Counted from the stretch's first letter, positions 8,337 through 33,026 are shown. The stretch is DNA of 42,892 nucleotides from Methanosarcinales archaeon (GCA_021159385.1 JAGGRW010000191.1:1-42892), one strand, 5' to 3'. Numbers and translations are program-made. Notes: generated by a model from the letters alone, not told the origin.

Positions 8337-8438
8337 GGGGTTTGACGTATGGCGCGCCAGTGGATAACTGAATCAAACCACAACACCATATACGCAGCCG
8401 GGCAAAGCAACGTCGAGTTTGAAAAGAATACGATCGAC

Positions 8439-10463
8439 ATGGATCCTGCATATCATGCGCTACAAAAATATTTCGGTTACACCACATTCCTACCACTCCA
8501 AAAGGATATTATCCAGGATATCCTGCTGAAAAAAGATGTTTTTGTCCTGATGCCAACGGGTGGCGGCAAATCTCTGTGTTATCAATTGCCAGCCCTTCTC
8601 CTCGATGGCGTAACGATTGTTGTGTCTCCGCTCATCGCTTTGATGAAGGATCAGGTTGACGCTTTGAAGGCGAATGGGATCGCCGCAGCCCATATCAATA
8701 GCTCTCTTAGTTATGATGAGATGCAAAATGTAAAATTGGACCTTGCAGAGCATATAGTCAGTATTCTGTACGTGGCTCCGGAAAGACTAATGGTTCCCGA
8801 CTTCTTATCGGCTTTGAAGCGTTTGAATGTCAGTTTGATCGCTATTGACGAAGCCCACTGCATATCAGAATGGGGGCATGATTTCAGACCCGGATACCGT
8901 CAGTTGGAAGTGCTCAAAGAACATTTTCCAAAAGTTCCTCTGGTTGCGCTGACCGCAACCGCCACATCACGAGTGCAGGAGGATATCACAACACAGCTAA
9001 AACTGTCCGATCCAAAGACATATAAGGCGAGTTTTAACCGAAAAAATCTATTTTATCAGGTTAAACCAAAAGACAATGCATACGATCAGTTACTTCAGTA
9101 TCTAAAGGGTCATAAAAATGATTCGGGGATCATTTATTGTTTCAGTCGTAAATCTGCCGATGATCTGGCAAACAAACTTAAAAAAGAGGGTCATCGTGCT
9201 TTGCCTTATCACGCAGGGTTAAAATCCGATTTAAGGGCTGAAACGCAGGATAAATTCATTAAAGACGATGTTGAGATAATTGTGGCGACAGTAGCGTTTG
9301 GGATGGGGATAGACAAATCCAATGTCCGTTTCGTGATCCATTACGATCTGCCGAAGAACCTTGAAACGTATTATCAGGAGACTGGAAGGGCTGGAAGAGA
9401 CGGAGAAGACAGTGATTGCATCATCTTCTTCAGTCGTTCCGATATGGGAAAAATATCGTATTTTATCGAGCAAAAAGAGGATGAAACAGAAAAACAGATC
9501 GCGTATAAGAAATTACGTGATATGGTTTCTTTCTGTGAGACTGGAACCTGCCGCAGGAAAGTTTTGTTGGAATATTTCGGCGAAATGTATGATGAAGTGA
9601 ATTGCGGCAATTGTGATAACTGCCTGGATCCAAAAGAGACGATCGATGGAACAATCATCGCTCAAAAGATCGTGTCGTGTGTTTCCCAGATAGGCGAAAG
9701 ATTTGGAATAAATTATATAGCTGATATTTTGTGCGGTTCGAGGATTCAAAAGATAATCCGCAACCGGCACAATATTGTAGCCGCTCATGGTGATGGGAAG
9801 GAATACTCAAAGAAGCAGTGGCAGGCTTTTACAAAGGAACTCGTTCGACTTGGTTACCTGAAGTCGGAAGGTGACAGGTACCCGATCATAAAACTGACAC
9901 CGGATGGTTGTGATATTTTATCCGGGGCTAAAGGGGTTTTGTTGACAAAACCGGAAGAAGAAGTTAAGATATTGCAAAAGGATGTTGATGGTAGTTTCGA
10001 TCACGACTTATTTGAAATTTTAAGGAGTTTGAGAAAGAAACTTGCCGATGATGCCAGTATGCCGCCGTACATCATTTTCCATGACTCAAGTTTGATAGAG
10101 ATGGCGACATATTTCCCGCGAAATCGATCAGACTTTCGGACGATTGTAGGTGTCGGTGAAAGCAAGTTGGAGACATACGGGGAACTGTTTTTAAATGAAA
10201 TAATTAGTTACTGTGAGAAACGCGAACATGCGCCACCTTTTCCCATCGAAGAAGAGGCGTATTCTGATAAATCCGGAGCATACTCGGTAAAGAAGATTCA
10301 AGAAACCCATCCGCGAGCGTATGAGCCGTGGACAGAGGACGAAGATGAAATGTTAACCGCTGACTACAAAGCTGGCAAAACCATCGAAGAGCTTATGGGA
10401 CTATTCGGGCGGCAAAGGGGCGGCATCAAGTCGAGATTAATGAAATTGGGGCTGCTTTCATAG
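8439..10463 (+). CDS. recQ: ATP-dependent DNA helicase RecQ with HRDC region and an extra C-terminal HTH-like tail
   Basis: ORF 8349..10463; the conserved core starts near ATG 8439 (MDPAYHALQKYFGY). Walker A MPTGGGKSLCYQLPA, DEAH box AIDEAHCISEWGHDFRP, Zn motif CRRKVLLEYFGE...CGNCDNC. Tail is EPWTEDEDEMLTADYKAGKTIEELMGLFGRQRGGIKSRL. Visibly AT-richer than its flanks (hand count 21/60 GC at 9001-9060). Confidence 0.9.
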   Translation: MDPAYHALQKYFGYTTFLPLQKDIIQDILLKKDVFVLMPTGGGKSLCYQLPALLLDGVTIVVSPLIALMKDQVDALKANGIAAAHINSSLSYDEMQNVKLDLAEHIVSILYVAPERLMVPDFLSALKRLNVSLIAIDEAHCISEWGHDFRPGYRQLEVLKEHFPKVPLVALTATATSRVQEDITTQLKLSDPKTYKASFNRKNLFYQVKPKDNAYDQLLQYLKGHKNDSGIIYCFSRKSADDLANKLKKEGHRALPYHAGLKSDLRAETQDKFIKDDVEIIVATVAFGMGIDKSNVRFVIHYDLPKNLETYYQETGRAGRDGEDSDCIIFFSRSDMGKISYFIEQKEDETEKQIAYKKLRDMVSFCETGTCRRKVLLEYFGEMYDEVNCGNCDNCLDPKETIDGTIIAQKIVSCVSQIGERFGINYIADILCGSRIQKIIRNRHNIVAAHGDGKEYSKKQWQAFTKELVRLGYLKSEGDRYPIIKLTPDGCDILSGAKGVLLTKPEEEVKILQKDVDGSFDHDLFEILRSLRKKLADDASMPPYIIFHDSSLIEMATYFPRNRSDFRTIVGVGESKLETYGELFLNEIISYCEKREHAPPFPIEEEAYSDKSGAYSVKKIQETHPRAYEPWTEDEDEMLTADYKAGKTIEELMGLFGRQRGGIKSRLMKLGLLS

Positions 10464-11615: not shown

Positions 11616-11659
11616 TTACGTGTTCACCCGATCAGAGAATTTCGGACGGAGTATCGTCT

Positions 11660-12019
11660 TTATTCACACCACACCACCTCCTTTTCTATCTCAGGTCTGA
11701 TATACGGACTCATGCCTCTGGTAGTGATCAGGTCTACATCTTTTCCGAATAGGTCTTCGAGAAAGAAGAGCAGATCCATAAAGTTGTCAAAGGTTGGTTT
11801 GTCGAATTCCACAAGCAGATCGATATCACTCGTCTCTTTCTGCTCTCTTCTCGCGTACGATCCGAATACGCCTATTTTCTTTACCCCATACCTTTTCTCT
11901 ATCTCTTTTTTGTGTTCTGCTATGGTTTCGATTGTGGTCATGGTCGTACCCTCCAGAGCGGCTCTGAGCCTTTTTGTTGCGTTCTCAAAATTTTCAAGCT
12001 GCACTTTTGCCTCAATCAT
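11660..12019 (-). CDS. Minimal nucleotidyltransferase (MNT, Pol-beta superfamily) carrying an N-terminal remnant of an HI0074-like HEPN partner
   Basis: NTase motif GVFGSYARREQKETSDIDLLVEF. The first ~26 codons (IEAKVQLENFENATKRLRAALEG) look like the start of a nucleotidyltransferase substrate-binding (HEPN) protein. An internal ATG at 11941 (MTTIETIAEHKK) could be the real MNT start. Confidence 0.75.
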   Translation of the reverse strand: MIEAKVQLENFENATKRLRAALEGTTMTTIETIAEHKKEIEKRYGVKKIGVFGSYARREQKETSDIDLLVEFDKPTFDNFMDLLFFLEDLFGKDVDLITTRGMSPYIRPEIEKEVVWCE

Positions 12020-12392
12020 AGATATTCACCCCGCTTTTGCGTATAATTGTTTTAAAATTTGGATTCACTCGATTCAGATCGACTACATCTATACTTTTAA
12101 GAGTGCGCAGTTCATCGATCTCGCCTCTTATCTTTGCTATCACACCAAGCGATATTTTTGATCCTGCATCGACTGCTATATCAAAATCAGAGGTCTCTGT
12201 GGCATCGCCTTTCGCTCTTGACCCGAAAAGAAAGATTCGTGCGTCGGGGAGGTACTTTGCTATTATATTTGTGGCATCTGCGAGTATCCCATCCGCGGAT
12301 AGGGGCTTTGGGTGTACTATCTGTTTCATTGCGGCATCTCCAAGTGATTTACTCTTATCTTCGCGGTCATGAGATTGTGAAGTTGCAGTCAT
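12012..12392 (-). CDS. Minimal nucleotidyltransferase (HI0073-like MNT)
   Basis: Motif IFLFGSRAKGDATETSDFDIAVD. C-terminus is VDLNRVNPNFKTIIRKSGVNIY. ATGA start/stop overlap with the upstream SNF2 gene. Confidence 0.8.
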   Translation of the reverse strand: MTATSQSHDREDKSKSLGDAAMKQIVHPKPLSADGILADATNIIAKYLPDARIFLFGSRAKGDATETSDFDIAVDAGSKISLGVIAKIRGEIDELRTLKSIDVVDLNRVNPNFKTIIRKSGVNIYD

Positions 12393-15300
12393 GAGATAAA
12401 ATCGATCACTACCAGTTTCAATAAATCCGGATCGTATGGCTCTAAAGGCTCTATGTGGCGCTCTTCCTTTCTCTTAAAAAAATCATCAAGTCTTCCCATC
12501 AATTTTTTCCAGTCCCCTGACTTCTGATACTCTCGCCATAATTTCCTGATCTCTCTGAGCCGTCGTTTGGTGAGAGGTATCTTCAACATTCTTTCTTTTA
12601 CCTGTTCCCATTTTTCTTCAGGCGTCCTATCTTCAGGAAACTCGAAGAAGTAGTTATTGACTTCTATGTCCAGTTCTTTGATGATGGTCTGGATGAACTT
12701 TGTGCTTTTATCTCGTATAATCTCTGGCAAAGACGTATCAATCTTCTGTTTTTGTTCTATCTCCTTGTATGTCAGTTCGATATCACTCAACACCTCTCCA
12801 TTAATCTCGTATATTCTATCAAAAAAATCAGGGATTACTCTCGCTTCATTTTTATCACATGAAATAAAGTCCACGATTGAACTCTTCGTTTTGATGATGC
12901 CCATAGTAGTTAGATCATAGAGATACCAGAAATGAAAGTCATCAGCATACTTATAATAAAAGAATATACCTCTCATTTTAGTAGTTTCCAGCCCACTATA
13001 AATCCCGTGTGGCAACTTTTCCAGTTCATCGAGTGCCATTTCTCTGGAAAAGTCCTTCAGAGGCTGATAGAATTTTTCACCTCCGCCGAATAATTCCTCT
13101 TCGAGTTCATCAAGAAGTGAATCATCTTTATCCTTTATCCGTCTGATCGTCCCAAATACCTTGGGATGGATTTCTTCGCCTAATATGGTCTGATCAAGCC
13201 CTATGGAGTCATCTATATTGATTATCTTCTGCTGAAGAATCGCCACCAGTTTGAGGAGATCTTCCAGTTCCTGTTCAGGGAAAAAGTTGTGGATGAAAAT
13301 TTTGTCATAAGGTGACCCAATCCTATCAATTCTCCCAGCTCTTTGAATCATTCTTGTTGGGTTCCAGTGCAGATCGTAATTTATGAGGATCCTTGCGGAT
13401 TGCAGATTCTGCCCTTCGGAAAGCACGTCCGTGCTGAAAAGGATATCTATGTTCTTATCAGTGAACTCTTTTACGATTTCCATTCTCTGCTTTGAGGGAG
13501 TTGTGCCGCATATCTTGACCACGTTCAGATTTTTAAAATTACTTGAATTAGATATATTATTAAAAATATAGTCAGTTGTATCGGCGTAGTACGAGAATAC
13601 AATTACCTGTTCATCACCACTGAATTTAAGCAACAACTCCTCCAATTTTCGAAGTTTCGCATCTTCGTCCGGACTGATATCTTTTATCCGATCAGAGATA
13701 CTTTCAAACATCCGTATATCGTGATCTATGTCCTCAAAAATCTCCTCCATCCTATATGCGGTCAAGTCAAAATCTTCCAGTTCTTCTGATATTTCGTCTA
13801 TTTCCTCATCCAGCATCATCAGATACTTATTAAAAGATTTTTTGGTCAGCAACTTTCCGTTTTCCATATACTTCTTGAGATTTATAAGAAATGTAATATG
13901 TTTTCGTATACTTCTTCTAAAAGCCTCAATACTGGATTCAAGTCTCTTTAAAAGGATCGTCCTGAAGATACCTTCCAGAGCTATCATCCTGCCGAGATCA
14001 AATTCTTCGTTTCTGGTGAGTTTCTCTTCCTTCTTGTATTGCAGCAGATGGTAATTGGGCATTTTTAATTTGTTGGTGATTATATCTGATATCTCGTTAT
14101 ACATACCCATATAGGCATCATTGAGGCGATAATCAACGTTTTCAAGCTCTCTTTTTGGAAATTTTATCTTTTTATTCTTTATTGTCGCATCTGGATAGTT
14201 CTTTATTATGTAGTCTCTTGTGCGCCTGATTGATATCTCATTCAAAACATCGCTCAACAGAGACGGATCTTCCAGTTTGTCCACCAGTTTGAAGAAATCA
14301 AAAAGATCGGAAATGTTCTCCCTGATAAAGGCTGTTTTGTTCATGCCCACAAGGAGCATCAACTGCCAGTAGAGGTCCCAGATGGTGTTGTTGATGGGTG
14401 TTGCGGTGAGGAACACTATGTACGGTCTTCTACCATCTTTTGCTATATGGTCATATACGAGTGTAAAGAAGTTCTCCCATTTATTGGACAGGGGATTCCT
14501 CAGGTTGTGGCTTTCGTCTACCACTATGAGTTCAACATCCTCAAGTCTTTCCGACGTTGCTCTTCTTGCTTTCTGCAAATATTCTTCAGATGCAAGTTCT
14601 TCCAGCGACATAATACTCTCGGTAAGTATCAGATCCTTGACCTCGCTGCGCCACATCTCCCTGAGTTGTGCGGGACATATTACAAGAAACCTCTTTCGTT
14701 GATAGAAACCAAACTCTTCAATGATCTTTTTAGCGAGCCACGTCTTTCCCATTCCCACTGAATCTGCAACAAGCACTCCGCCATATTTTTCAAGCCGCGA
14801 AAGGATCCGGGTGACCGCATCTGCCTGAAATTCGGTCAACTCCACCATAGAACGTGGTCGATCCGGATCGCCATCCTCTTCACCCCATCTAATCTCGTCT
14901 TTCTGTAACTCATAGAGAGATTTGATGTAGACCTGATATGGAGTGTATTCGTTGGTTCCGAATCTCGAATCCTCAAGTATCTGTATCAGTTCTTCCCTGA
15001 AATCTCTGGTACATTCGTGATTCCAGAACTTCTCGAACCACTCTCTCCTTGTGTACTGGGCTGCTGCCTGAAGGGATACAGAGTTGAGTTCGGTGTTGTG
15101 TGTCAGACCTGCGACTGTGAAGTTTGAAGAGCCTACGATCACCAGATCATCGAAGATATACGCTTTGCCGTGGAGAAAGCCACCCTCGTATATTTTCACT
15201 TCCACGTTGTCTTTTTTGAGAAAGTCGATCAGCGATTTGACCGAATCCTCGCAATCCGTGATCAGGTCGAATCCTTCGATCTCGTTTTTAACCCTGAATA

Positions 15301-15532
15301 ACAGTTCATCCCCAAATGTGCGGTCGGTTTTTATCTCGGGTGCCCTGCCAATGAGAAGACGGAAACTGTTTACACCGTCCAGTTCCTCGCGCAATATGGC
15401 ATAAGCTCCAACGTTGAAGAAGGCTGTTGCTATATCGAAATTTACCTCATTTGAATCCCTGAGCGTCTCTTTGAGAAAGGTTGAGAGCCTGTTATCTTCG
15501 CTGTTATCGATTATCTCGCGTGGTACTGGCAT
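12389..15532 (-). CDS. PLD-family (single HKD) nuclease domain fused to an SNF2-family helicase/translocase
   Basis: 1047 aa. N-terminal HKD motif HGKAYIFDDLVIVGSSNFTVAG. SNF2/SF2 motifs ADSVGMGKTW (I), LIVVDESHNLRN (II, DExH), FLTATPINN (III), LSEGQNLQ (V), HWNPTRMIQRAGRIDRIGS (VI). About 300 aa of unassigned C-terminus. Confidence 0.85.
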   Translation of the reverse strand: MPVPREIIDNSEDNRLSTFLKETLRDSNEVNFDIATAFFNVGAYAILREELDGVNSFRLLIGRAPEIKTDRTFGDELLFRVKNEIEGFDLITDCEDSVKSLIDFLKKDNVEVKIYEGGFLHGKAYIFDDLVIVGSSNFTVAGLTHNTELNSVSLQAAAQYTRREWFEKFWNHECTRDFREELIQILEDSRFGTNEYTPYQVYIKSLYELQKDEIRWGEEDGDPDRPRSMVELTEFQADAVTRILSRLEKYGGVLVADSVGMGKTWLAKKIIEEFGFYQRKRFLVICPAQLREMWRSEVKDLILTESIMSLEELASEEYLQKARRATSERLEDVELIVVDESHNLRNPLSNKWENFFTLVYDHIAKDGRRPYIVFLTATPINNTIWDLYWQLMLLVGMNKTAFIRENISDLFDFFKLVDKLEDPSLLSDVLNEISIRRTRDYIIKNYPDATIKNKKIKFPKRELENVDYRLNDAYMGMYNEISDIITNKLKMPNYHLLQYKKEEKLTRNEEFDLGRMIALEGIFRTILLKRLESSIEAFRRSIRKHITFLINLKKYMENGKLLTKKSFNKYLMMLDEEIDEISEELEDFDLTAYRMEEIFEDIDHDIRMFESISDRIKDISPDEDAKLRKLEELLLKFSGDEQVIVFSYYADTTDYIFNNISNSSNFKNLNVVKICGTTPSKQRMEIVKEFTDKNIDILFSTDVLSEGQNLQSARILINYDLHWNPTRMIQRAGRIDRIGSPYDKIFIHNFFPEQELEDLLKLVAILQQKIINIDDSIGLDQTILGEEIHPKVFGTIRRIKDKDDSLLDELEEELFGGGEKFYQPLKDFSREMALDELEKLPHGIYSGLETTKMRGIFFYYKYADDFHFWYLYDLTTMGIIKTKSSIVDFISCDKNEARVIPDFFDRIYEINGEVLSDIELTYKEIEQKQKIDTSLPEIIRDKSTKFIQTIIKELDIEVNNYFFEFPEDRTPEEKWEQVKERMLKIPLTKRRLREIRKLWREYQKSGDWKKLMGRLDDFFKRKEERHIEPLEPYDPDLLKLVVIDFIS

Positions 15533-15534
15533 AT

Positions 15535-16305
15535 TTAGTCCTCGGTAAGTTTCAGTTGAACGGTTCTATGTGGGTGGATATTATGTGGATTGGGCTGAGG
15601 CGGATAGAATATCCCTATGATCAACCAGGAACCAAATCGAAAATGCGTTCCCATGAAGAAGTACATGTCCCTCGTCTTCATGAAATCGAAGAATCTCGCT
15701 TTTATCTTCTCTTCTATGACCTTCCGGTCATTTTCTCTCCGCATGACGTTTCTTGCCAGTTCGTTTAATTCCCAGTCGATCAAGATTATGTTATGACCTC
15801 TGCATTCTGGTTCATCCCTGCATCTGAAGCGATACTTCAGTTCCACAGGCATCTTCACCCGTTCTCGACGCTCCAGATAATCGCCTGCGATGGAAAAATA
15901 GGTCTGTTCATCATAAATATCAGTGCTGTTCACTGTTACATCGATTCCCTGCAATTCGGGTTTGATCACGCCAAGACTGGCGTTCTCTTCACTTAATTTT
16001 TCGATGGAAGAGACCAGTGGTAAAATCCGCTCCCGCACCTCTTCATCGGTTAATCGTGAGCTCATATTCTGGTGATGGATAACCTTTCTGCTCTCTCTTC
16101 TTTTATCGTTGTCCGGATTTGCAAGAGTAACTTCTATCAGGTCTCTTTTCCTGAAATCGATCAGTCCCTCCCCGTAACTGAACCTGAAAGGATACAACCG
16201 CCTCCACTGGTTGTTCTCATTTATTCCAGCTACGCACACCAGATGGTCGTGTTTCCTGCTTTGTTCTGGCGTTGCTCTGACCAGCACAAGGATTTGTTCT
16301 TTCAA
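15535..16305 (-). CDS. Hypothetical protein (256 aa), no family recognised
   Basis: Tightly packed in the operon (4-nt overlap upstream, 2-nt gap downstream). Notable strings are HLVCVAGINENNQWRRLYPFRF, FRCRDEPECRGHNIILIDWE and FFMGTHFRFGSWLIIGIFYPP. Confidence 0.6.
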   Translation of the reverse strand: MKEQILVLVRATPEQSRKHDHLVCVAGINENNQWRRLYPFRFSYGEGLIDFRKRDLIEVTLANPDNDKRRESRKVIHHQNMSSRLTDEEVRERILPLVSSIEKLSEENASLGVIKPELQGIDVTVNSTDIYDEQTYFSIAGDYLERRERVKMPVELKYRFRCRDEPECRGHNIILIDWELNELARNVMRRENDRKVIEEKIKARFFDFMKTRDMYFFMGTHFRFGSWLIIGIFYPPQPNPHNIHPHRTVQLKLTED

Positions 16306-17162
16306 AGGTGAATTACCTCCTTATTTTGCTGCATTTCGATTTGACTGGCAATAACACCTCTGTGGCACAGGTTTACATCTGCTTCGAAGCATAAGAGAGC
16401 CGCCCTGTGATCTTCACCCAATCCGATGATTCGCTCTACCTCTTCAGGATGTTCTTTCAGTGTCGTGGCTTCATATCGCTTGAATAACATCTGGTAGTCC
16501 CTTCTGGTTACGAGATTTTTTCTTGATTCTCCGTCGATCCCGAGTTCAGGGATGTGGGTGTACCCGATGTCCACTTTTCCCAGATAATTCTCCAGTTTGC
16601 TTCTTGTAAAACTGAAATTCATGCTGAAAGGGTTCTTTCTGACATCGATCAGGAGGTCTATCTGGTTTTTTATCATGGTGTTCAGGAAGGAATCGATGTC
16701 TCTGCCCTCGTAGCCGATTGTGAAAAGAGCGGGGGGGCATTTATTTCTGGTGGCAGGGACAATCTCACTCTTCACCGTGTATTCAGGGTATTTACTGTAT
16801 ACATATTCTCTTATCTCACGGTCGGAATTGAACCTGCTGGTGACTCGTTTTACTTTCATAGACGCCTTGCGGTCTGCACTGGCGGCAGCTTTTCTTCCTG
16901 CTTCAGTCGGTGTCAGGTGCGTTCCGTCTTCTGCCAGGAGCCCAGCCTGTTCGAGTTTATAGAGGTCAGCGTAACATACATTGGAAAAAGGACCGTACCT
17001 ATAGGGAAAGAAGTTATAGAACTTGATGAGACGCCCCACAGTTTCCTCCTGGGCGAGCAGAAAGAGAGTTTTTACGAGCATGAATCTGGATGAGTTCTCG
17101 TTCTCTGATAGGCTTTCCACTACTTTCAGGAGGATTCGCTGTTTGTGGGTCAGGAGTTTCAT
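16302..17162 (-). CDS. Fusion of an N-terminal Panacea/DUF4065 (SocA/YwgA-like) winged-helix domain with a C-terminal DUF488 domain
   Basis: The N-terminal part, LVKTLFLLAQEE...FYNFFPYRYGPFSNVCYADLYKLEQAGLL, fits the K-L-x-Y-L...Y-GP pattern of Panacea-type domains. The C-terminal part, TIGYEGRDIDSFLNTMIKNQIDLLIDVRKNPFS...HIPELG...ALLCFEADVNLCHRGVIA, fits DUF488 (YeaO-like). Both assignments are from memory of the family motifs. Confidence 0.65.
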   Translation of the reverse strand: MKLLTHKQRILLKVVESLSENENSSRFMLVKTLFLLAQEETVGRLIKFYNFFPYRYGPFSNVCYADLYKLEQAGLLAEDGTHLTPTEAGRKAAASADRKASMKVKRVTSRFNSDREIREYVYSKYPEYTVKSEIVPATRNKCPPALFTIGYEGRDIDSFLNTMIKNQIDLLIDVRKNPFSMNFSFTRSKLENYLGKVDIGYTHIPELGIDGESRKNLVTRRDYQMLFKRYEATTLKEHPEEVERIIGLGEDHRAALLCFEADVNLCHRGVIASQIEMQQNKEVIHL

Positions 17163-17479
17163 CTCCCCACACTCCTCGCCTTATCAAGCCTGTTCTTCAC
17201 CAGTTCAGCCACCGCCCAGTAAACCTCTTTCCGCTCATCGTCCGTTAAGCCGATAGCGTCAAAGACCACATCATCCAGTGCTTTTCTGTCGGGCAGGGGT
17301 TCAGGCTCCTGCTCGCGGATGGGTTTTGCGGGGTCGAAGCCGAGTTCGGTGATGATGGATTGAATATCTCGTTTTGATATTTGACTAAATAGTTTTTCAA
17401 TATCTTTTATGTCTCTCACTTTTGGAATGAGCAAATCTTTTACTTCATATACTGGCGTTTTTAGCGCCCCCTCCCCCAA
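17159..17479 (-). CDS. Detached C-terminal tail module of an Eco57I/type IIG-like DNA methyltransferase (106 aa, TTG start in the track)
   Basis: Residues GEGALKTPVYEVKDLLIPKV...RDIQSIITELG align without gaps to the last 48 aa of the upstream 1171-aa ORF. The ORF then continues with a tail, RKALDDVVFDAIGLTDDERKEVYWAVAELVKNRL, that the large ORF lacks. It overlaps both neighbours (19 nt and 4 nt). Confidence 0.55.
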   Translation of the reverse strand: MGEGALKTPVYEVKDLLIPKVRDIKDIEKLFSQISKRDIQSIITELGFDPAKPIREQEPEPLPDRKALDDVVFDAIGLTDDERKEVYWAVAELVKNRLDKARSVGR

Positions 17480-20400
17480 AGAACCAAGCCGAGTTCAGCG
17501 AAGGTGGATTGGACCGGGCGCACATTCATCGCGACCAAAACCTCTTCACATTTATTGTTATCAACAAAAACAGGATTCAAAATAACAAAATTCAATATTT
17601 CAGGACCATACGTCGTTAATAAACCCTCTCTCAAATTTATTCGTCCATAAGTTTCGCTTATCAGTATTCCAATTGTAGAATTTAAAATTAAACCCAGAGA
17701 CCATTTTTTGTATGGATCAAATTTTCCAACAAATACAACATCCCCAATTAACACATTGGCTTCATCTGGAAGTATAGGTGTCCAATTCCTCTTGTCACGG
17801 AACCGCAAAAAAAGATAATCTTGCTTTTCTTGCTTATTTAACTCCCACCACATCCCCCTGCTTGCACAAGTGGGTCTTTCATGGAAACCTTGAGATTCCC
17901 CCCATTCGATATATTTCAACGCCTTTGTCCCCACCAGTTCCTCTTTCGACTTATGACACATAAAAACTTTATACTTCAAATCCCCTGGATTAATCACAAT
18001 CGATTTACACTCCTTTGGTGACTTTATCACCGGTTTCAAAAACTCCTCTTCGATCTGCCATTTCTTCTGCGCCTCGTCATCGAGATAGAAAAACTCATTC
18101 GCCCCTGTCTTAATTCCGAATCGAACCTCCGCAATCTCCCCCAGCCTAACAAGCTTCCCTGCCCCCTTCTCAAGAATCGTAAAGAAAATATCCGGCGCCC
18201 GCAGGTACTTCCCGCCCCACTTGTTGCCAGCATATCTCCCTTTCCTGAACCGTCCCTGCTTCTTGTCATAATCTTCAGGATACTCCCAGCCATCCTCCAG
18301 AAGGGCACCCTGCCCGACAGGAAAGACACGGTACTCATCCGTTTTCACAATCTCGTCAGCCCGCTCCATCCTCAAAAGGTTTCCAACGTTCGATACTTCC
18401 TCAAACGGTTTTTTGAACATCACAAAACGGGCTGTATGCGACAGCAGGGGCCACTCGATGCCGCCTCTGTAATCCGGATCGTCCAGCCTGCTCTGGACCG
18501 ATCCTTCTTTGACGATGCCTCCTCTGATCACTGGCGCGCCGAAGAGCGCGATTACCGTGTTCACGTCCGCATGTTCGAAGCTGCGACTGACCTGATTGTC
18601 ATAGATGGCATGAATCGGCACATACTTCAGCAGAAACTCCTGCAATCCTTTTCCATAGTCCACATCCAGCCACGAGTTTGATGTGATGAAGCAGAACGTT
18701 CCACGGGGGTTCAGGAGCCCCAGCCCGTGGAAGTAGAAGTAAACGTAATAATCGCTCTTCTTGCTGATCTTCTCGACAACCGGAAAGAGCGCGGTAACTG
18801 ACCTGACAAGTTTGTCCTTGTATCCGGTTCGATCATCCTTTGTAATCTCTACCTTCATCCTATTCGGCGGGGAGATCTTCTCCTGCCTCACATACGGGGG
18901 GTTTCCAATCACGATATCAAAACCACCCTTCTCCCCAAAAATCTCCGAAAAAGCAATCTCCCATACAAAAGGCTTCTTCTCAGGAACTTCTATCTCTACC
19001 TTGACCTTTTCAAGCGTTTCCTTCTCTTCGACAAGTTTCTTTCTCTTGTTTCTGAGTTTCTCTTTCTCTTCTCTGGAAATACCGGTTTCATTTCCTGATA
19101 AATCCAGCTGTATGTGTTTGGATCTTTTGTCTATGTCCTCAACCTTCTCGTCTATCCCCCGGATCTGCTCATCCACAATCTCGATAAAGATCCGTATCTC
19201 TTCCTTTTCCAGCGCTTCCTTGGATTTGAACCTGGCATCAGGATAGTTGTGGTAATATTTCTCTTTTTCAGCTTTTAGAGCATTCAGTTTCTTTTTGATG
19301 ATAGGCGTTGCATCAGCATCCCTCAAATGGAGATTGATACCCCCGATCTCCTGTACCAGAGAATCCCCAACCCTCAGATTCATGTTCAGATTCGGAAGAA
19401 GCGGACGAGTCTTCAGATCCTTCGGTTTAAGATCCGCCTCCACGATCAGTTGAAGCCACAGTCTCAACTCTGCAGCATGTACAGCCCACGGCATCACATC
19501 CACACCGTAAATGGACTTTCCGATGATCCCTTTTTTGATATCAAAATCTGTACGTTGAAGACCAATATTTTTGTATACTTCCCTGTACAGTTCTGTCAGG
19601 GCAATAAGATGACCTACGAGAAAAGCACCTGAACCGCAGGCGGGGTCTACAATGGAGAGATTCTCAAGTACGTCTTCAAGTGTGTGCCACATCCTCTGGT
19701 CTGTGAAGAATTTTCTGGACTTCTCTTTCTCTGCGTCAAAAACAAAATCATAGATGATCTCTCTGGGAACGTCATCGAGATGCTTTGCAAGGAATTCGGT
19801 GATGGTTCTGCGAACCATGAAATCTACTTCAACCCGTGGAGTGTAGAAGATGCCCATATCATTTCGGTCGTAAATCTCTTCGGCGACGTTTGCCAGCGAC
19901 TCATAAACATATCCTATCATCTGCGGGTCAACTGCAACTTCAACATCCAGTGGAACATCTTCTTTGATTGTAAAGTTGTATTTATTGTAAAAACCCATAA
20001 CATCGCTGATAAATTCATCTTCGAGGGAAATACCGAGTTTATCCTGATCAGTTTCCTTGAAAAGACCGCCGTTCAGGAATGGCGTTGCTCTCAAAACCTT
20101 CTTTACTTCTTCAGGCAGGTTTTCCGAGTCAAAGAATATATTGTTGAACGATTCAAAGAAAAGCACACCGAGCCAGTCTTTGTAAAAACTGTCTTTCTCT
20201 GTTTGACCATCTCGCACCCCTTTTTTATACAAACCCCAGAACCAATCCATAAATTTCGGATCGTTGTTCAGCCATCTTTTTTTGGAGATGAAATATATGA
20301 ACATTGTCCGGTTGAGGAACTGGAGGGTGAATTCATGGGCGTCTTTTGTCGAGATACTGCCATCAACGAGATGGTTTCTGATTCGGAAGAATCGTTTCTT

Positions 20401-20976
20401 GTAATCCTCAAAGAATTCGTCTGTTACCCTTGAAACACTAAAAGCCTTTTTCCAGCCCAGCCATGCGTCCCTCCAGTTATTCCAGTCTTTATTGAATCTA
20501 AGTTTTGCAACCGTATCTATATCGGTGTAGTACAGTTCCTGTTTATTTAAGAGAAGTTTTGACAATTTTAGCTTATGCTTTCCGATTTTCACCTTTTCAA
20601 ATTCCGGGAATACGAATAACAGTTCGCTGTAGTCTACAGTAAAAATGATCAATAGCCTGAGGTATCGCTCTGCAAACACCTTTGAGATATATCTTACAAA
20701 GGAAGGACTCATAGATTCGGTCTCTACAAGAAATACAGGAAGTTTATCATCCAGACTCAATATCGTGTAAATATCTTTAATTTTGGCTTTTTCGTCTTTG
20801 GCAAAATCGAAACCCTCGATATCTCGTTTAAAAGACGGGTCGAGGATAGAACTTTGAGGGTAATCCAGGTCTCTGAATAGGTTAAATAGATCGTCAGGAG
20901 ATGTGATCCTCTCGATTTTGTCTCTTATCTGGTATCGGAAGTCCGTATCGAGAGTTTTCTTCGGGTGTTTCTCCAT
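17461..20976 (-). CDS. Large N6-adenine DNA methyltransferase (Eco57I/type IIG/PglX-like architecture) with a C-terminal specificity-like region
   Basis: 1171 aa. SAM motif I IVDPACGSGAFLVG lies upstream of motif IV VIGNPPYVRQE. Family-typical helix FLNRTMFIYFISKKRWL. A coiled, K/E-rich insert separates the motifs. I could not identify a clear PD-(D/E)xK nuclease motif. Confidence 0.85.
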   Translation of the reverse strand: MEKHPKKTLDTDFRYQIRDKIERITSPDDLFNLFRDLDYPQSSILDPSFKRDIEGFDFAKDEKAKIKDIYTILSLDDKLPVFLVETESMSPSFVRYISKVFAERYLRLLIIFTVDYSELLFVFPEFEKVKIGKHKLKLSKLLLNKQELYYTDIDTVAKLRFNKDWNNWRDAWLGWKKAFSVSRVTDEFFEDYKKRFFRIRNHLVDGSISTKDAHEFTLQFLNRTMFIYFISKKRWLNNDPKFMDWFWGLYKKGVRDGQTEKDSFYKDWLGVLFFESFNNIFFDSENLPEEVKKVLRATPFLNGGLFKETDQDKLGISLEDEFISDVMGFYNKYNFTIKEDVPLDVEVAVDPQMIGYVYESLANVAEEIYDRNDMGIFYTPRVEVDFMVRRTITEFLAKHLDDVPREIIYDFVFDAEKEKSRKFFTDQRMWHTLEDVLENLSIVDPACGSGAFLVGHLIALTELYREVYKNIGLQRTDFDIKKGIIGKSIYGVDVMPWAVHAAELRLWLQLIVEADLKPKDLKTRPLLPNLNMNLRVGDSLVQEIGGINLHLRDADATPIIKKKLNALKAEKEKYYHNYPDARFKSKEALEKEEIRIFIEIVDEQIRGIDEKVEDIDKRSKHIQLDLSGNETGISREEKEKLRNKRKKLVEEKETLEKVKVEIEVPEKKPFVWEIAFSEIFGEKGGFDIVIGNPPYVRQEKISPPNRMKVEITKDDRTGYKDKLVRSVTALFPVVEKISKKSDYYVYFYFHGLGLLNPRGTFCFITSNSWLDVDYGKGLQEFLLKYVPIHAIYDNQVSRSFEHADVNTVIALFGAPVIRGGIVKEGSVQSRLDDPDYRGGIEWPLLSHTARFVMFKKPFEEVSNVGNLLRMERADEIVKTDEYRVFPVGQGALLEDGWEYPEDYDKKQGRFRKGRYAGNKWGGKYLRAPDIFFTILEKGAGKLVRLGEIAEVRFGIKTGANEFFYLDDEAQKKWQIEEEFLKPVIKSPKECKSIVINPGDLKYKVFMCHKSKEELVGTKALKYIEWGESQGFHERPTCASRGMWWELNKQEKQDYLFLRFRDKRNWTPILPDEANVLIGDVVFVGKFDPYKKWSLGLILNSTIGILISETYGRINLREGLLTTYGPEILNFVILNPVFVDNNKCEEVLVAMNVRPVQSTFAELGLVLWGRGR

Positions 20977-21241
20977 ATTCTTCGCCCTCTCTACAGATTG
21001 AGGTTACGACGTCTTTAATGATGCTTTGCATAGAGCACGGTGAAAGTGAAATGCGTGATTATGCCCTTATGCCCTTGCGCGCATCGATCCCCCCTAATCT
21101 TACAGGCAGCCTCCCAGAGCCATGTTTCCAGTGTTCTTATATCGAATTTGTTATCAGACATCCACGAAAACACCTTTTTGACCGAATGGTATTAAGCGCA
21201 TCCCATTTCGCAGTATCATTCCTCGTCCTGGCGATTTATCT

Positions 21242-28477: not shown

Positions 28478-29113
28478 ATGGAAGACGATTTGATCGGAAA
28501 GTTGAGGAAGATACGAGGATTCAGGGTCATCGAGAGCGACGAGCAGAGTATACTCGTAGATGTCCGGGACTTCGGAATGGATTCGCGGGAGCTGATCCGC
28601 CGCCTCAGAGAAGACGGAATCGTTGTGCATGAGTGCGACGGTGGCAGTGGCAGTGACCGTGGCGGCGATTGCATCAGGATCGATTCCAAATCTGTTAACC
28701 GGGAGCTGATCGATGTTCTCAGCAGCGCGATATCCGACTGGGGGCAGGACCTTGCCCGAAGGAACATCGAGGCTGTGATGAAGGATGGGGTCTGCGTGGG
28801 GAGACGGGATTGTGAATATTATCCGTGCCATTTTGAGGGGCAGGACTGTACGTTCTGTTTCTGCCCGTTCTATCCGTGCGGCGATACGCGAACCGGCGGC
28901 AGGTACGTTGAAAGCTCGACCGGCAAGACGGTCTGGAGTTGCGTCGGATGCACGATCATCCACGAGCACGAGGTTGCGTGTGAGGTGCTCGACGGGCTGA
29001 TGGCGCTTGAGCCCGGAGAGGATGTTTTGTCGGTGTTTCGGGATGTGATCGTTCCGCGTCTGCGCGATCGCGATGCCGGCACTGACGCAGGTACCGACGC
29101 CGACGCCGGGTGA
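28478..29113 (+). CDS. Cysteine-rich small domain protein with an N-terminal segment resembling only the C-terminal lobe of a CobD/HisC-type aminotransferase
   Basis: The N-terminal part, [31 protein letters not shown]...CIRID, resembles an aminotransferase C-terminal domain. The C-terminal part is Cys-dense: [25 protein letters not shown]...[11 protein letters not shown]. Its 3' end forms the left copy of the island direct repeat. Confidence 0.6.
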
Positions 29114-29154
29114 TGCGAACCGCGCAACAGGGGACTCGCGCCGGTTCGTGATCG
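28886..29154. repeat. Left copy of a ~270-bp direct repeat (att-like), covering the last 228 nt of the Cys-rich-domain gene plus 41 nt downstream
   Basis: Aligns with 34921-35191. The 122-nt block 28955-29076 is identical to 34991-35112. The flanking parts carry scattered substitutions and a 1-nt indel. Confidence 0.9.
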
Positions 29155-29204
29155 TTGCAGGTAGGGGGAGGGTTTTGGCATCAATCAAAGACCGATGGAA
29201 AGCG

Positions 29205-29212
29205 TTATGATT
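29205..29212 (+). promoter_or_regulatory. TATA-like box (ttatgatt) of cassette 1
   Basis: Lies 46 nt upstream of ATG 29251. The segment 29196-29253 is clearly homologous to 34065-34122 (same box, same 46-nt spacing). Confidence 0.45.
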
Positions 29213-29250
29213 CATCCTGTACGAACAATGGAAATGAAGAGGCGAGTATT

Positions 29251-29502
29251 ATGACGAAACTAACGTTAAATATCCCTCCCGGGCTTGAAACCCGCATGGG
29301 ACTTCTGATTGAGGGGGGATTATACTACACGAAGGATGAACTCATTGCAGATGCGGTTCGGAGGTTGCTTGCAGTTGAACTTGAAACACTTGTTCAGCAC
29401 AAATATTACTGGAACAAGTTAACAGCAGAGCGTGATGTTGAGGTAACAGAGGACGAGTTGGACCGATTGATCCACGAAATCCGCGCTGAGATGATCGATT
29501 GA
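29251..29502 (+). CDS. vapB: RHH/CopG-like antitoxin (VapB-like)
   Basis: ORF 29155..29502; the likely start is ATG 29251 (MTKLTLNIPPGLETRMGLLIEGGLYYTKDELIADAVRRLL = beta strand + helices). 4-nt overlap with the PIN gene. Confidence 0.7.
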   Translation: MTKLTLNIPPGLETRMGLLIEGGLYYTKDELIADAVRRLLAVELETLVQHKYYWNKLTAERDVEVTEDELDRLIHEIRAEMID

Positions 29503-29945
29503 AACGGGTGTATCTGGACACCAATGTGCTTGTTATGGGCATTCTGAAGCATGAATCAAATTCAAGACGAGTGCTCGAATTGACAAACCGTGGAGAGATC
29601 CACGCCATTATATGTGATTACAGCATCGAGGAGCTTAAGAGAGTTCTCCGACGGCTGCTTCCACGTAAAGAAGCCAATTATAGGTTATATCTGTTCATAA
29701 AGTACGCAGCATCAAATCCGTTCATAAAAATTGTGAAATACCAATACTACGAGCACAGAGAAGACCATTTCAAAGAATATATTGTCAAAAAAGATTTGCC
29801 GCATCTGATTGTTGCGATTGAAACGAAAACAGATGCAATTATTGTGAAGGACAGGCATTTCACCGGTCAAAAGTTGATCCGCGTCATGACTCCACGCGAG
29901 TTCCTGCGAGAGCTGGGTAAAGATATGTTTGAAGGCGATTTGTGA
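29499..29945 (+). CDS. vapC: PIN-domain toxin (VapC-like)
   Basis: TTG start overlapping the antitoxin stop (TTGA). N-terminal KRVYLDTNVLV acidic motif. C-terminal TDAIIVKDRHF. Confidence 0.75.
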   Translation: MKRVYLDTNVLVMGILKHESNSRRVLELTNRGEIHAIICDYSIEELKRVLRRLLPRKEANYRLYLFIKYAASNPFIKIVKYQYYEHREDHFKEYIVKKDLPHLIVAIETKTDAIIVKDRHFTGQKLIRVMTPREFLRELGKDMFEGDL

Positions 29946-30019
29946 GACTTTATGGGTTGATTTTTTGTTTAAATAATTCTTAAAGGTTGTTGAGACCCAT
30001 AAGTTGCTGGAGGAAGAAG

Positions 30020-30286
30020 ATGTATAAGTACGCAATAGAGATATTCTATAGTGAGGAGGATGAAGGCTACGTTGCAATAGTTCCGGAGTTGGCAGGTTGC
30101 TCAAGCTTCGGAAATACCGAGGAGGCGGCGTTAAAGGAGATTATGACTGCGATAGAGCTCTGGTTGCAAGCTGCCGGAAAGGAGGGGAGGGAGATCCCAC
30201 AACCAGTGGGGAAACCGCTATTGCGAGCGATCGTTGGTGGGGACATCGCGGTTCACCATGCACGCCCACAAGTGGCTGTCGTATAA
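30020..30286 (+). CDS. Solo HicB-family antitoxin-like protein
   Basis: ATG 30020 preceded by ggagg. MYKYAIEIFYSEEDEGYVAIVPELAGCSSFGNTEEAALKEIMTAIELWL is the HicB N-domain pattern. The C-terminal ~25 aa read into the GC-rich junction repeat. No adjacent HicA. Confidence 0.65.
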   Translation: MYKYAIEIFYSEEDEGYVAIVPELAGCSSFGNTEEAALKEIMTAIELWLQAAGKEGREIPQPVGKPLLRAIVGGDIAVHHARPQVAVV

Positions 30287-30348
30287 CCGAAGTGTACCCC
30301 GCTTCGCGTGCACGCAACAGGCGAGGGTGGTTCGCGATTTCTGCAGAG

Positions 30349-30403
30349 CCCGCCGCCGGTTCGGTGCTGATGCGGACGTGCGCGATGGCGGGCGGCGGGC
30401 GGG
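30349..30403. repeat. GC-rich junction repeat A
   Basis: Core ccgccgccggttcggtgctgatgcgga (30350-30376) and tgcgcgatggcgggcgg (30379-30395) are identical to 33984-34010 and 34013-34029. The outer 8-bp arms cccgccgc / gcggcggg are complementary. Confidence 0.85.
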
Positions 30404-30412
30404 AACATAAGA

Positions 30413-30419
30413 TTATAAT
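30413..30419 (+). promoter_or_regulatory. TATA-like box (ttataat) of cassette 3
   Basis: Lies 47 nt upstream of the TTG start at 30460, followed by SD-like gaggtgagg (30446-30454). Confidence 0.4.
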
Positions 30420-30459
30420 CAATCAAGTACCAACCCCCACATCAAGAGGTGAGGTATAA

Positions 30460-30726
30460 TTGACAACCGTTACCGTGAGTTTCAAAGGTGCTCAAGAGAA
30501 GATCCTTGAGGAGATGCTAGATCTGGGCATAGTTAGAACCAAAACCGAAGCCATTCGCGTAGCTATGTTGAACTTCGCTCTCACCAGTGGACTGATGTCG
30601 AAAGAGAAGATTCTTGGGGCGATTCACAAACAGGCAAAATCCATTCGCGTGAACGAGGCTGATCTTCAAGGAATGATAGAACGTGCCAAAGAGGAACAGG
30701 GCTCTCCACGCTTGCACAATGTTTGA
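30460..30726 (+). CDS. RHH/CopG-like DNA-binding (antitoxin-like) protein
   Basis: 88 aa. TVTVSFKGAQEKILEEMLDLGIVRTKTEAIRVAMLNF has a strand-helix-helix layout. An internally deleted copy of this gene lies at 39289-39377. Confidence 0.55.
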   Translation: MTTVTVSFKGAQEKILEEMLDLGIVRTKTEAIRVAMLNFALTSGLMSKEKILGAIHKQAKSIRVNEADLQGMIERAKEEQGSPRLHNV

Positions 30727-30753
30727 ATTTGACAAATAAGTAGGTGAATAAAA

Positions 30754-30966
30754 ATGCAGACGTTTACGGCAGTATTACATAAAGAAGAGGATATGTATGT
30801 GGCAGAGTGTTCAGAAGTTGGCACAGTCAGTCAGGGGAAGACCATAGAGGAGGCTATAAACAATCTTAAAGAGGCTACTGAGCTTTATCTGGATGAGTTT
30901 CCGTTAAAGGAAGAAAGAAAAACGCTGATGACAACATTTGAGGTGGCAGCCAGTGCCAAAGCTTAG
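30754..30966 (+). CDS. hicB: HicB-family antitoxin
   Basis: 70 aa. FTAVLHKEEDMYVAECSEVGTVSQGKTIEEAINNLKEATELYLDE. Overlaps the hicA start. Confidence 0.75.
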   Translation: MQTFTAVLHKEEDMYVAECSEVGTVSQGKTIEEAINNLKEATELYLDEFPLKEERKTLMTTFEVAASAKA

Positions 30967-31183
30967 GAAAGTTTCAGGAGAAAAGGTGATCAGAATTCTC
31001 TGTAACAAAATGGGGTTTCGGATTAGTGGTAGAACCGGTAGCCATGTCAGATTATCGAAGACGACTTCCGGGGGAAGAATAGGAACTGTTGTCCCTATGC
31101 ATGGAGAGCTAAAGATAGGGACGCTGAAAGGAGTTCTAAAATTAGCAATGGTTGATGAAGATGAATTTTCAAAGTATTTATGA
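30953..31183 (+). CDS. hicA: HicA-family mRNA interferase toxin
   Basis: ORF 30938..31183; the likely start is GTG 30953 (PKLRKVSGEKVIRILCNKMGFRISGRTGSHVRLSK). Contains the G-S-H motif typical of HicA/YcfA. Confidence 0.75.
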   Translation: MPKLRKVSGEKVIRILCNKMGFRISGRTGSHVRLSKTTSGGRIGTVVPMHGELKIGTLKGVLKLAMVDEDEFSKYL

Positions 31184-31230
31184 CGTGCTGAACTCTCACA
31201 ATACTCCCGGATTGTTTGGTGCAAACGCAA

Positions 31231-31282
31231 GCGATGGCGGGCGGGCGGCAGATGCGCATGTGGGGCGGCGGGTGGTGGGAAC
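31231..31282. repeat. GC-rich junction repeat B (rearranged or duplicated version of the right half of repeats A and C)
   Basis: gcgatggcgggcgggcggcag followed by atgcgcatgtggggcggcgggtggtgggaac. Compare gcgcgatggcgggcggcgggcgggaac in A. Confidence 0.6.
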
Positions 31283-31367
31283 GTGGTATCCGATGACATG
31301 CGAGGAAGGATAAACTCCCAGAAATTAAGCGTAATATTTATGCAGCATCAACAGATATTAGTATACA

Positions 31368-31544
31368 ATGGATGGACTTGTTGCGGATGCTGTTCGGAGA
31401 TTGCCAGAGAGGCTCGAACTTGCAACACTTGTTCAGCCGCACAAATACTACTGGAACAGGTTAACAGCAGAGCGCGATATTGAGGTAACAGAGGTCGAAT
31501 TGGACCGATTAATTCATGAAATCCGCGCAGAGATGGTGAAGTGA
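31368..31544 (+). pseudogene. N-terminally truncated paralog (58 codons, still open) of the 29251 RHH antitoxin
   Basis: 31373-31547 aligns at nucleotide level with 29335-29508. It encodes MDGLVADAVRRLPERLELATLVQPHKYYWNRLTAERDIEVTEVELDRLIHEIRAEMVK, versus ...ELIADAVRRLLAVELETLVQHKYYWNKLTAERDVEVTEDELDRLIHEIRAEMID. It lacks the DNA-binding beta strand. Confidence 0.7.
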
Positions 31545-31638
31545 AACAAACGCGATCGATCGTTCAACCAGATGGATATGTATACGAAGTAGGTTCGGAT
31601 ATACTGCGTTAGGCGAAATGCGTAGGAGGTATTGAGAT

Positions 31639-32547: not shown

Positions 32548-33005
32548 AAACATTATGTATAGTTCCTTGTGGGAATAGGAAGATATGGAATAAAAAACCA
32601 AATGCAGGACCTACCCAAGCAAGAGATGTATATACCGGACTGTTCGCTAAAAAGTGTAGAGAATATGCAGAGAAATTTTACCGAACCTCTTGGTGTATTC
32701 TATCTATTCTATCTGCAAAATATGGATTTCTATTTCCAGACGAAATTGTCCAAGGTCCTTATAATGTAAGTTTTAATGACAAAAGCACAAATCCAATCTC
32801 TCTAAGTGAACTCTCTAATCAAATAATAGAGAAAAAATTGAATAAGTTTGATAGAATTGTGGTTTTGGGTGGAAGAAATTATGTAAATATGATAAAGGCA
32901 GTGTTTCACCAAAAGGAAATTCATACGCCATTAACTGATTGCCAAGGAATTGGATATATGATGGGAAAGCTTAACGACTCTATTCAAAGAGGAGTTCCGC
33001 TATGA
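32544..33005 (+). CDS. DUF6884-like (YaaA-related, SAKYG motif) protein
   Basis: 153 aa. ATGA overlap with the upstream gene. IVPCGNRK...ARDVYTGLFAKKCREYAEKF...WCILSILSAKYGFLFPDEIVQGPYNVSF matches my memory of the DUF6884 pattern and needs HMM confirmation. Confidence 0.5.
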   Translation: MKTLCIVPCGNRKIWNKKPNAGPTQARDVYTGLFAKKCREYAEKFYRTSWCILSILSAKYGFLFPDEIVQGPYNVSFNDKSTNPISLSELSNQIIEKKLNKFDRIVVLGGRNYVNMIKAVFHQKEIHTPLTDCQGIGYMMGKLNDSIQRGVPL

Positions 33006-33026
33006 CCTACGCACTATCACCTAACA

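Follow-up and report, generated by a model that had tools for sequence, protein, structure and literature searches.

We examined a 42,892-nucleotide contig of a Methanosarcinales archaeon (GCA_021159385.1 JAGGRW010000191.1:1-42892, hereafter the window), in which an island of seven open reading frames (ORFs) runs on the minus strand from position 20976 down to 11660. A first-pass annotation had read these ORFs as a single, undescribed seven-gene defence system. We conclude instead that they are three modules: a core consisting of an N6-adenine DNA methyltransferase (the methylase) and a protein fusing an HKD (PLD) domain to an SNF2 helicase (HKD-SNF2); a two-gene candidate defence cassette, PDC-M19 of PADLOC, carried as cargo in a slot between the core partners; and two minimal nucleotidyltransferases (MNTs). 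Judging from sequence, the unit is best counted as six genes, one of them interrupted, and not seven. On balance, and with some reservation, we favour the view that core pair, slot cargo and MNT cargo together make up a composite island that was acquired horizontally. It is composed of known, uncharacterised kinds of genes and is not a categorically new seven-gene system.

Gene neighbourhoods bear out that the pairing of methylase and HKD-SNF2 is real and conserved, and that it follows restriction-modification (R-M) logic. In a metagenome scan seeded with an HKD-SNF2 alignment, with the window proteins mapped onto 80 loci, a methylase resembling that of the window was the same-strand neighbour of HKD-SNF2 in 11 of the 12 loci having at least 5 kb on both sides. 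The adjacency persists in both gene orders and down to 26 % HKD-SNF2 identity, and the divergences of the two proteins correlate (Spearman 0.52, p 8e-4, n 38). Five loci seeded on either partner have the same layout (L144/L145, L146 from Helarchaeota, L147 from Candidatus Loosdrechtia and L148 from Nitrospirota), as do two plasmids, pRadio5 of Deinococcus radiophilus ATCC 27603 (L149) and a plasmid of Thermococcus profundus DT5432 (L150), where RefSeq labels the partners only as "N-6 DNA methylase" or "DNA methyltransferase" and "helicase-related protein". We suggest that methylase and HKD-SNF2 form a widespread restriction-like pair, which is unnamed as far as the searched literature goes.

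The slot between the two partners is variable. It is 0.1 to 8 kb wide and each locus has its own genes in it: PIN, MNT (with a probable HEPN), DUF2851, DUF3800, Schlafen/AlbA_2, IS200, AAA_14/DUF4143, radical SAM, HigB with an HTH-peptidase M78, DUF262 and AbiEii genes were all found there, with DUF262 or AbiEii in the two plasmid loci. No DUF499 gene was seen next to the sampled HKD-SNF2 relatives, whether in L144-L148 or in more distant ones.

In the window, the slot holds PDC-M19. Its first gene (PDC-M19A, 16302..17162, minus strand) encodes 286 amino acids (aa) with an N-terminal half lacking a domain assignment and a C-terminal DUF488 domain (Pfam, 5e-24 at residues 156-273) and matches the PADLOC model PDC-M19A (PDLC04505) at 7.9e-81 over residues 5-282. 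The second (PDC-M19B, 15535..16305, minus strand) starts at a TTG after AGGAGG and encodes a 256-aa protein matching PDC-M19B (PDLC04507) at 3.7e-119 over residues 3-237. The two genes are adjacent, as the two-gene PDC-M19 definition has it; they lie on the same strand and overlap by 4 nt. The 256-aa protein had been taken for an orphan, but its family is conserved, with at least 143 homologous clusters. The DUF488 protein had likewise been called Panacea-like; we rejected this identity for want of Pfam support, as no DUF4065 match was obtained for the N-terminal half of the window protein and six diverse homologues at E<=5. Its other PADLOC similarities are weak, to one Type I S-subunit model (9e-8) and to DarG (1e-3), and a PDB sequence search with it gave no match.

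A genome scan with an alignment of the 256-aa family returned 62 loci. In at least 28 of them the DUF488 and M19B genes are adjacent, usually overlapping, with no full-length methylase or HKD-SNF2 alongside. Carriers of the pair without the core include Methanosarcinales, anaerobic methanotrophic archaea (ANME), Methanoperedens, Altiarchaeota, DPANN lineages and a metagenome-assembled genome (MAG) of Desulfobacteraceae, and the neighbouring genes there include a Type I R-M operon (L016), an SMC-like ATPase (L039), RecQ (L052) or housekeeping genes. One Altiarchaeota locus (L012:9150-12643) carries two tandem DUF488+M19B pairs, 51-53 % and 63-64 % identical to the window proteins.

Close relatives of the island show the cargo outliving its host system. 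One of them (L067) retains DUF488, M19B and HKD-SNF2 intact at 84-91 % identity to the window. In L001-L003 all that is left of the methylase is its residues 1-57, which run in frame into the tail across a GFDxAK microhomology; a 41-residue HKD-SNF2 stub has been kept as well in L001 and L003, and in L006 and L008 only the last 64 residues of HKD-SNF2 are left. In all five of these loci the cassette is intact, with a ratio of nonsynonymous to synonymous substitution rates (dN/dS) of about 0.2, while the methylase and HKD-SNF2 are remnants. Since the cassette stays intact under this constraint as the core decays, it is selected independently of its host system, and the DUF488+M19B pair is an autonomous cassette that would spread independently of the core.

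The remnants themselves deserve a description. Those of the methylase (L001:3709-4056, L002:5544-5861 and L003:8473-8814) stay open in three MAGs, total 106-116 aa (the N-terminal 57 aa plus the C-terminal ~55 aa) and have dN/dS values of 0.23-0.48, which is not clearly neutral. The idea that they represent the small gene into which a mobile methylase inserted was refuted by full-length homologues; as both ends are native to the methylase, L001-L003 carry in-frame deletions at the GFDxAK microhomology. The 64-residue HKD-SNF2 piece follows the cassette in a Desulfobacteraceae MAG (L006:2697-2889) and in an ANME-2 MAG (L008:2222-2390); it has its own ATG, is open, and can be taken either as a remnant or as a small stand-alone gene.

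The two MNTs downstream of the core are further cargo of the same sort. The shorter one (119 aa, 11660..12019, minus strand; Pfam NTP_transf_2 7e-17) matches the single-gene PADLOC candidate PDC-S09 (PDLC04906) over its full length at 3e-35, and its homologues occupy the methylase/HKD-SNF2 slot in L078, L107 and L111. The other (126 aa, 12012..12392, minus strand; Pfam Polbeta 2e-15) has a weak PDC-S09 match (4e-9) and an NCBIfam MntA match at 8.5e-15; the MntA scores of the two proteins, 54.5 and 48.4 bits, are under the 60-bit cut-off. No HEPN ORF was found in the island, which sets the pair apart from Type VII (MNT-HEPN) toxin-antitoxin systems.

The earlier description of the layout agrees with the ORF coordinates and GC counts. 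In transcription order the junctions are overlaps of 19, 4 and 4 nt, a gap of 2 nt, and overlaps of 4 and 8 nt. The GC fraction of the island (11660-20976) is 0.434, against 0.560 for priS, 0.554 for the radical SAM gene and 0.554 for a CLC channel gene. A low-GC island between GC-rich genes therefore holds for the immediate flanks, but RecQ beyond priS is also low (0.435) and a further low-GC patch lies at 29-34.5 kb of the window; the dip of the island is not unique within it. The upstream boundary is contained in the intergenic region of the operon (20977..21241, minus strand, GC 0.457): DNA homology to the related islands L001-L003 starts at about 21184-21053 and homology to L143, a contig discussed below, at 21117, while the radical SAM gene beyond is not common to related islands. 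A search for integration signatures was negative: the window is free of tRNA genes, and direct repeats do not flank the island. The S-layer gene (PF07752), priS, other genes and the organisms of the closest loci point to a Methanosarcinales-like host.

Pfam and motif checks upheld the earlier domain calls of an adenine methylase, a PLD-SNF2 fusion, a DUF488 domain and two MNTs. The methylase (17461..20976, minus strand, 1,171 aa) is of the Eco57I/MmeI/CamA type, with Pfam matches to Eco57I (1.6e-31) and MmeI_Mtase (3.7e-11), PADLOC matches to REase_MTase_IIG (1e-47), DrmMI (4e-22) and PglX (3e-16), and the motifs DPACGSG at 444 and NPPY at 692. Its family profile aligns with CamA (7lni) over the methyltransferase and target recognition domain (TRD), profile positions 367-1141, and weakly with BrxX and MmeI, and it thus has the gamma-class N6-adenine methyltransferase with fused TRD that is characteristic of Type IIG enzymes. 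Its 4,845 homologues are mostly ~1,220-1,240 aa long, with 1,210-1,250 aa as the usual span of the family, and the window ORF is shorter.

HKD-SNF2 (12389..15532, minus strand, 1,047 aa) has a PLDc_2 domain at residues 95-170, SNF2-rel_dom, ResIII and Helicase_C matches over 230-740, and about 250 C-terminal residues without domain assignment. It contains a single HKD motif of the form HxKx4D (HGKAYIFD, 121-128), GMGKT at 260 and DESH at 339; these catalytic positions are all invariant in a 16-member alignment whose mean column identity is 73 %. The protein has 2,113 homologues, and its PADLOC matches are to the "HKD+Snf2" model C3a139 (4.5e-61), DrmD (2e-44) and HmaA (2e-30). Every piece of the island matches some PADLOC model.

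The methylase gene is interrupted in the window. In an uninterrupted homologue (P0241, 1,222 aa, from the Logan contig L143 of SRR14000037), STFAELG continues into FDPTKPIREQ and on to a terminal SVGR; in the window, STFAELG is followed by LVLWGRGR and a stop, and the tail resumes in a different frame. Comparison with L143 by blastn locates a 149-bp insertion at 17337..17485 (minus strand), bounded by a 26-nt imperfect direct repeat (17337-17362 and 17486-17511, spacing 149). The insertion repeats, in diverged form, the ~50 codons before it, and this second copy is closer to the family consensus, the inserted peptide LGEGALKTPVYE...ELG agreeing with that consensus. The 106-aa ORF (17159..17479, minus strand, TTG start), previously listed as a separate gene, is the methylase C-terminus displaced by this insertion, which is absent from L143: its residues 1-47 come from the insertion, homology to P0241 begins at "FDP" (residue ~48), and residues 52-106 are an exact match. 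It has no internal methionine and no obvious ribosome-binding site at its TTG. A PDB sequence search with P0241 gave no match.

We interpret the insertion as a probable recombination scar that introduces a stop codon and detaches the last ~55 methylase residues. The window is 99.86 % identical to L143 over 21117-17486, while past the insertion (17362-17139, tail and start of the DUF488 gene) the identity is 97.3 %. This step in identity suggests that the methylase body, including its specificity domain, was replaced recently by allelic recombination with an imprecise right-hand crossover. The tail is near-invariant and among the most conserved parts of the family, and with it detached the methylase, and hence the core system, may be impaired in the window genome. 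Alternatively, the insertion could be a variant of the strain or of the assembly. A 16-nt perfect inverted repeat, AAACCCATCCGCGAGC, was also noted between the RecQ 3' end (10303-10318) and the methylase tail (17311-17326), for which a rough estimate of chance expectation in the region is ~0.02-0.05; as a sign of a domain common to RecQ and the methylase it was rejected, with protein comparison at chance level.

These observations bear on how far the window locus is still functional. It is possible, although we hold it to be somewhat unlikely, that the locus is a decaying, non-functional remnant in which the 149-bp insertion has put the methylase out of action and the other genes drift. The stop codon with its detached near-invariant tail is what such decay predicts, and the island lineage readily loses methylase and HKD-SNF2 in relatives. 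At the same time, the remaining ORFs are intact with their catalytic motifs kept, the methylase body is 99.86 % identical to the intact allele, so that the event is recent, and selection should act against a genome that combines an inactive methylase with an intact HKD-SNF2. Strain heterogeneity in the assembly could also account for the insertion.

Structure prediction on the family alignment (AlphaFold2; predicted local distance difference test, pLDDT, 83; predicted template modelling score, pTM, 0.82) gave a model of M19B with Foldseek matches to the tandem OB-fold single-stranded DNA (ssDNA) binders Pyrococcus RPA, Teb1, TEBP-alpha, POT1 and CST, at probabilities of 0.93-1.0, and to single OB domains, among them RecO-N and mtSSB. 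Over all of these matches the probability was 0.9-1.0 and E about 1e-4, with a global template modelling (TM) score of only about 0.25. The structural search recommended for this protein by the first-pass annotation thus returned a tandem OB-fold match, but one with low global similarity, and we consider M19B to be probably a two-OB-fold, ssDNA-binding protein. Many Methanosarcina species (L019-L061) carry a solo M19B homologue, 50-55 % identical, at a conserved chromosomal position, for example at L023:10001-10708. The genes around it are Big_1, PEGA, aminotransferase and Vut_1 genes, and priS lies 6-9 kb upstream; in the window, the island borders priS itself. Synteny of the window with these loci was considered and discarded, as priS is the only gene in common and stands in the other orientation; a viral origin of M19B was likewise discarded, as no relatives were found in viral contigs.

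The RPA-like tandem OB-fold hypothesis and the solo Methanosarcina homologue make it worth asking whether PDC-M19 serves in defence at all. It could be a replication or repair accessory (an OB-fold ssDNA binder with a DUF488 enzyme) or a selfish addiction cassette hitch-hiking in defence loci, and we regard such a non-immune role as a tenable but minority interpretation. The solo gene sits 6-9 kb from priS among non-defence neighbours, the pair is also found beside RecQ (L052) and an SMC-like ATPase (L039), and a literature search on PDC-M19 and DUF488-N3 found nothing, experimental defence data included; on function, the DUF488 papers found yielded only a ParB-CTPase/DUF488-HTH (helix-turn-helix) fusion that binds CTP and a DUF488 protein on Methanoperedens plasmids. 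Conversely, the PDCs are defined by embedding (10.1101/2024.01.29.577857) and PADLOC took the PDC-M19 family from genes lying inside BREX, DISARM and R-M loci, the pair lies within or beside R-M-type loci in the window and in L016, and its distribution is patchy, with no members in viral contigs.

Returning to the core as the restriction-like module of a composite island, we propose that the methylase, with its own TRD, would mark host DNA at a specific motif, and that HKD-SNF2 would be the ATP-driven restriction arm. Its SNF2 motor would translocate on DNA, and its single HKD motif would pair with that of a second copy to build a PLD-type nuclease site cutting unmodified DNA, with the methylase probably lending sequence recognition in a Type III/ISP-like and SauUSI-like logic. 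The slot would collect unrelated defence or toxin-antitoxin cargo, whose co-transcribed passengers keep activities of their own; in the window this cargo would be PDC-M19, a translationally coupled DUF488 and tandem OB-fold protein independent of the core. Methylation, cleavage and protection by the island genes are predicted here from domains and gene context.

Several points weigh against this scheme. An interrupted methylase beside an intact-looking nuclease arm would be self-toxic for a classical R-M pair, unless the truncated enzyme retains activity, its tail works in trans, the whole system is silent or the interruption is an artefact of assembly or strain. As for the cargo, the low global TM score tempers the OB-fold assignment of M19B, and its solo, syntenic occurrence among Methanosarcina housekeeping genes weakens a purely defensive view of PDC-M19.

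A different division of labour would make the methylase a bifunctional Type IIG enzyme with an N-terminal nuclease, and HKD-SNF2 a second, independent effector. The best PADLOC matches of the methylase are indeed REase_MTase_IIG models, aligned from residue 177 on, and the family has a conserved N-terminal extension of ~360 aa with an alpha/beta domain at about 60-160. An AlphaFold2 model of residues 1-420 (pLDDT 80) nevertheless had no significant Foldseek match in the PDB (best E 0.097), neither to MmeI nor to any other PD-(D/E)xK structure. The MmeI and BrxX profile matches are limited to the methyltransferase core, no clear D...(D/E)xK motif is found among the invariant columns of the family alignment, and the near-obligate pairing with HKD-SNF2 argues for a nuclease in trans. 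Although a missing structural match does not prove that a nuclease is lacking, we consider this arrangement improbable; with no MmeI-type nuclease evident in the methylase, the simplest candidate for the nuclease is the HKD domain of its partner.

Neither component of the pair is without precedent, and "undescribed" was too strong a term. HKD phosphoesterases fused to SWI2/SNF2 ATPases were noted in bacterial R-M systems by Aravind et al. 2012 (PMC3417536), and Table 3 of Milman et al. 2023 (PMC9881135) lists Cj0031-like Type II R-M coding sequences (CDSs), which are Type IIG-like, with an adjoining PLD+SNF CDS. In these pairs, too, a large Eco57I/Cj0031-type adenine methylase CDS adjoins a PLD and SNF2 helicase CDS, and the window core belongs to this kind of Type II(G)-like methylase and PLD-SNF helicase pair. 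Those reports are passing notes on bacteria, with no name, census, slot concept or experiments; what the window contributes is a member from an archaeon, with cargo embedded in it and its methylase interrupted. By analogy, SauUSI (Type IV) and NgoAVII/CglI provide a precedent for an HKD domain and a helicase acting as a restriction endonuclease, since they too combine a PLD-family nuclease with a superfamily 2 (SF2) ATPase in ATP-dependent DNA cleavage. SauUSI, in contrast, hits modified DNA via its DUF3427 domain and has no partner methylase, while NgoAVII/CglI have PLD and helicase on separate proteins and C5 methylases as partners. Type III (Mod + Res) and Type ISP systems likewise couple a methylase/recognition subunit to an SF2 ATP-dependent motor with a nuclease; Type III Res, however, is a PD-(D/E)xK nuclease with a Rad25-like helicase and Mod a beta-class methyltransferase, where the window has an HKD/PLD nuclease, an SNF2-type motor and a gamma-class Eco57I/CamA-type methyltransferase, which places it outside Type III.

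The nearest named system is Hma/Type-2 BREX-related (BR). In Type-2 BR systems (Payne et al.; Rakesh & Krishnan 2026, PMC12839542) the effector protein joins a Swi2/Snf2 helicase to an HKD endonuclease at its N-terminus, an architecture that HKD-SNF2 of the window has as well, and both combine it with an N6-adenine methylase in a proposed R-M-like logic. Class 1 DISARM (DrmD, DrmMI, DrmA, DrmB, DrmC) similarly contains an SNF2 helicase, an N6-adenine methylase and a PLD nuclease domain, and HKD-SNF2 scores with HmaA (2e-30) and DrmD (2e-44) of PADLOC, as the methylase does with the DrmMI and PglX models. It is nonetheless highly doubtful that the core is a variant of either system, working by a BREX/DISARM-like mechanism and not by simple cleavage. 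Type-2 BR systems have a DUF499 AAA+ ATPase as their central component and DUF3780 in 98 % of members (PMC12839542), whereas Pfam/PADLOC scans of the island proteins and other large window ORFs found no DUF499, DUF3780 is absent from the island proteins (Pfam), from the rest of the window and from the annotated genes of L144-L148, and the HmaA similarity is confined to the helicase core. Compared with class 1 DISARM, neither the island nor the rest of the window has DrmA or DrmB (DUF1998), the DrmA similarity being only in the helicase core of HKD-SNF2 (2e-22), the PLD domain of the island is fused to SNF2 and is not a separate DrmC, and the NCBIfam DISARM_DrmD score of HKD-SNF2 is 183.1 bits against a cut-off of 610. 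The NCBIfam PglX models score 37-56 bits on the methylase against cut-offs of 400-900, the methylase being of the Eco57I/CamA type with its own TRD. Pfam, PADLOC and NCBIfam scans found neither PglZ nor BrxC in the window, nor BrxL, HsdR or HsdS, and the same genes were not seen with the sampled HKD-SNF2 relatives in the case of DrmA, DrmB, PglZ and BrxC. The earlier placement of the locus outside DISARM, BREX and Type I, which lack of the defining genes had suggested, is thus sustained.

That all six or seven genes form one integrated multi-component system, with DUF488, the 256-aa protein and the MNTs as obligate subunits, is very improbable: the tight overlapping junctions on one strand and the same gene order in closely related loci (intact in L067, as remnants in L001-L003, L006 and L008) would suit it, but outside this island lineage the modules separate, with the core pair accompanied by other cargo in every other sampled locus, the M19 pair occurring without the core in at least 23 loci and M19B alone in Methanosarcina, and the M19 pair outlasts core decay.

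The flanks of the island contain further features. RecQ (8349-10463, plus strand), just beyond priS, is of the bacterial type (TIGR01389, 770 bits; GC 0.435), and an Aenigmatarchaeota locus has a RecQ 54 % identical to it standing divergently beside a DUF488+M19B pair (L052:7144-8892). The second low-GC patch (29000-34500, GC 0.37-0.47) carries small plus-strand ORFs, of which that at 32544-33002 matches PADLOC PDC-M57A (2e-14) and the others have no matches; a further small islet, mobile or defensive, may be present here.

The implications of these findings are modest, and current understanding is not overturned. The PDC-M19 and PDC-S09 matches are full-length and embedded in a DNA-modification-type locus, as the guilt-by-embedding method of Payne et al. 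(2024 preprint) expects, and the present analysis adds to PDC-M19 a predicted tandem OB fold and a solo copy in Methanosarcina. More broadly, we put forward only tentatively that the pair is a distinct class of ATP-dependent R-M enzyme, its slot a general docking bay for mobile defence cassettes and PDC-M19 an ssDNA-sensing immune module. If this is true, the class would combine a Type IIG-like methylase with a PLD nuclease and an SNF2 motor under a Type III/ISP-like logic and be widespread in both archaea and bacteria, and PDC-M19 would have a domesticated chromosomal relative in Methanosarcina. As a natural case of defence genes lodged in the fixed slot of another system, the locus is a clean one. 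The pair itself has thousands of homologues, in archaea, Nitrospirota, Deltaproteobacteria, cyanobacterial plasmids, Deinococcus and Thermococcus, and the cultured Deinococcus and Thermococcus strains among its carriers are ready experimental models in which it is directly testable.

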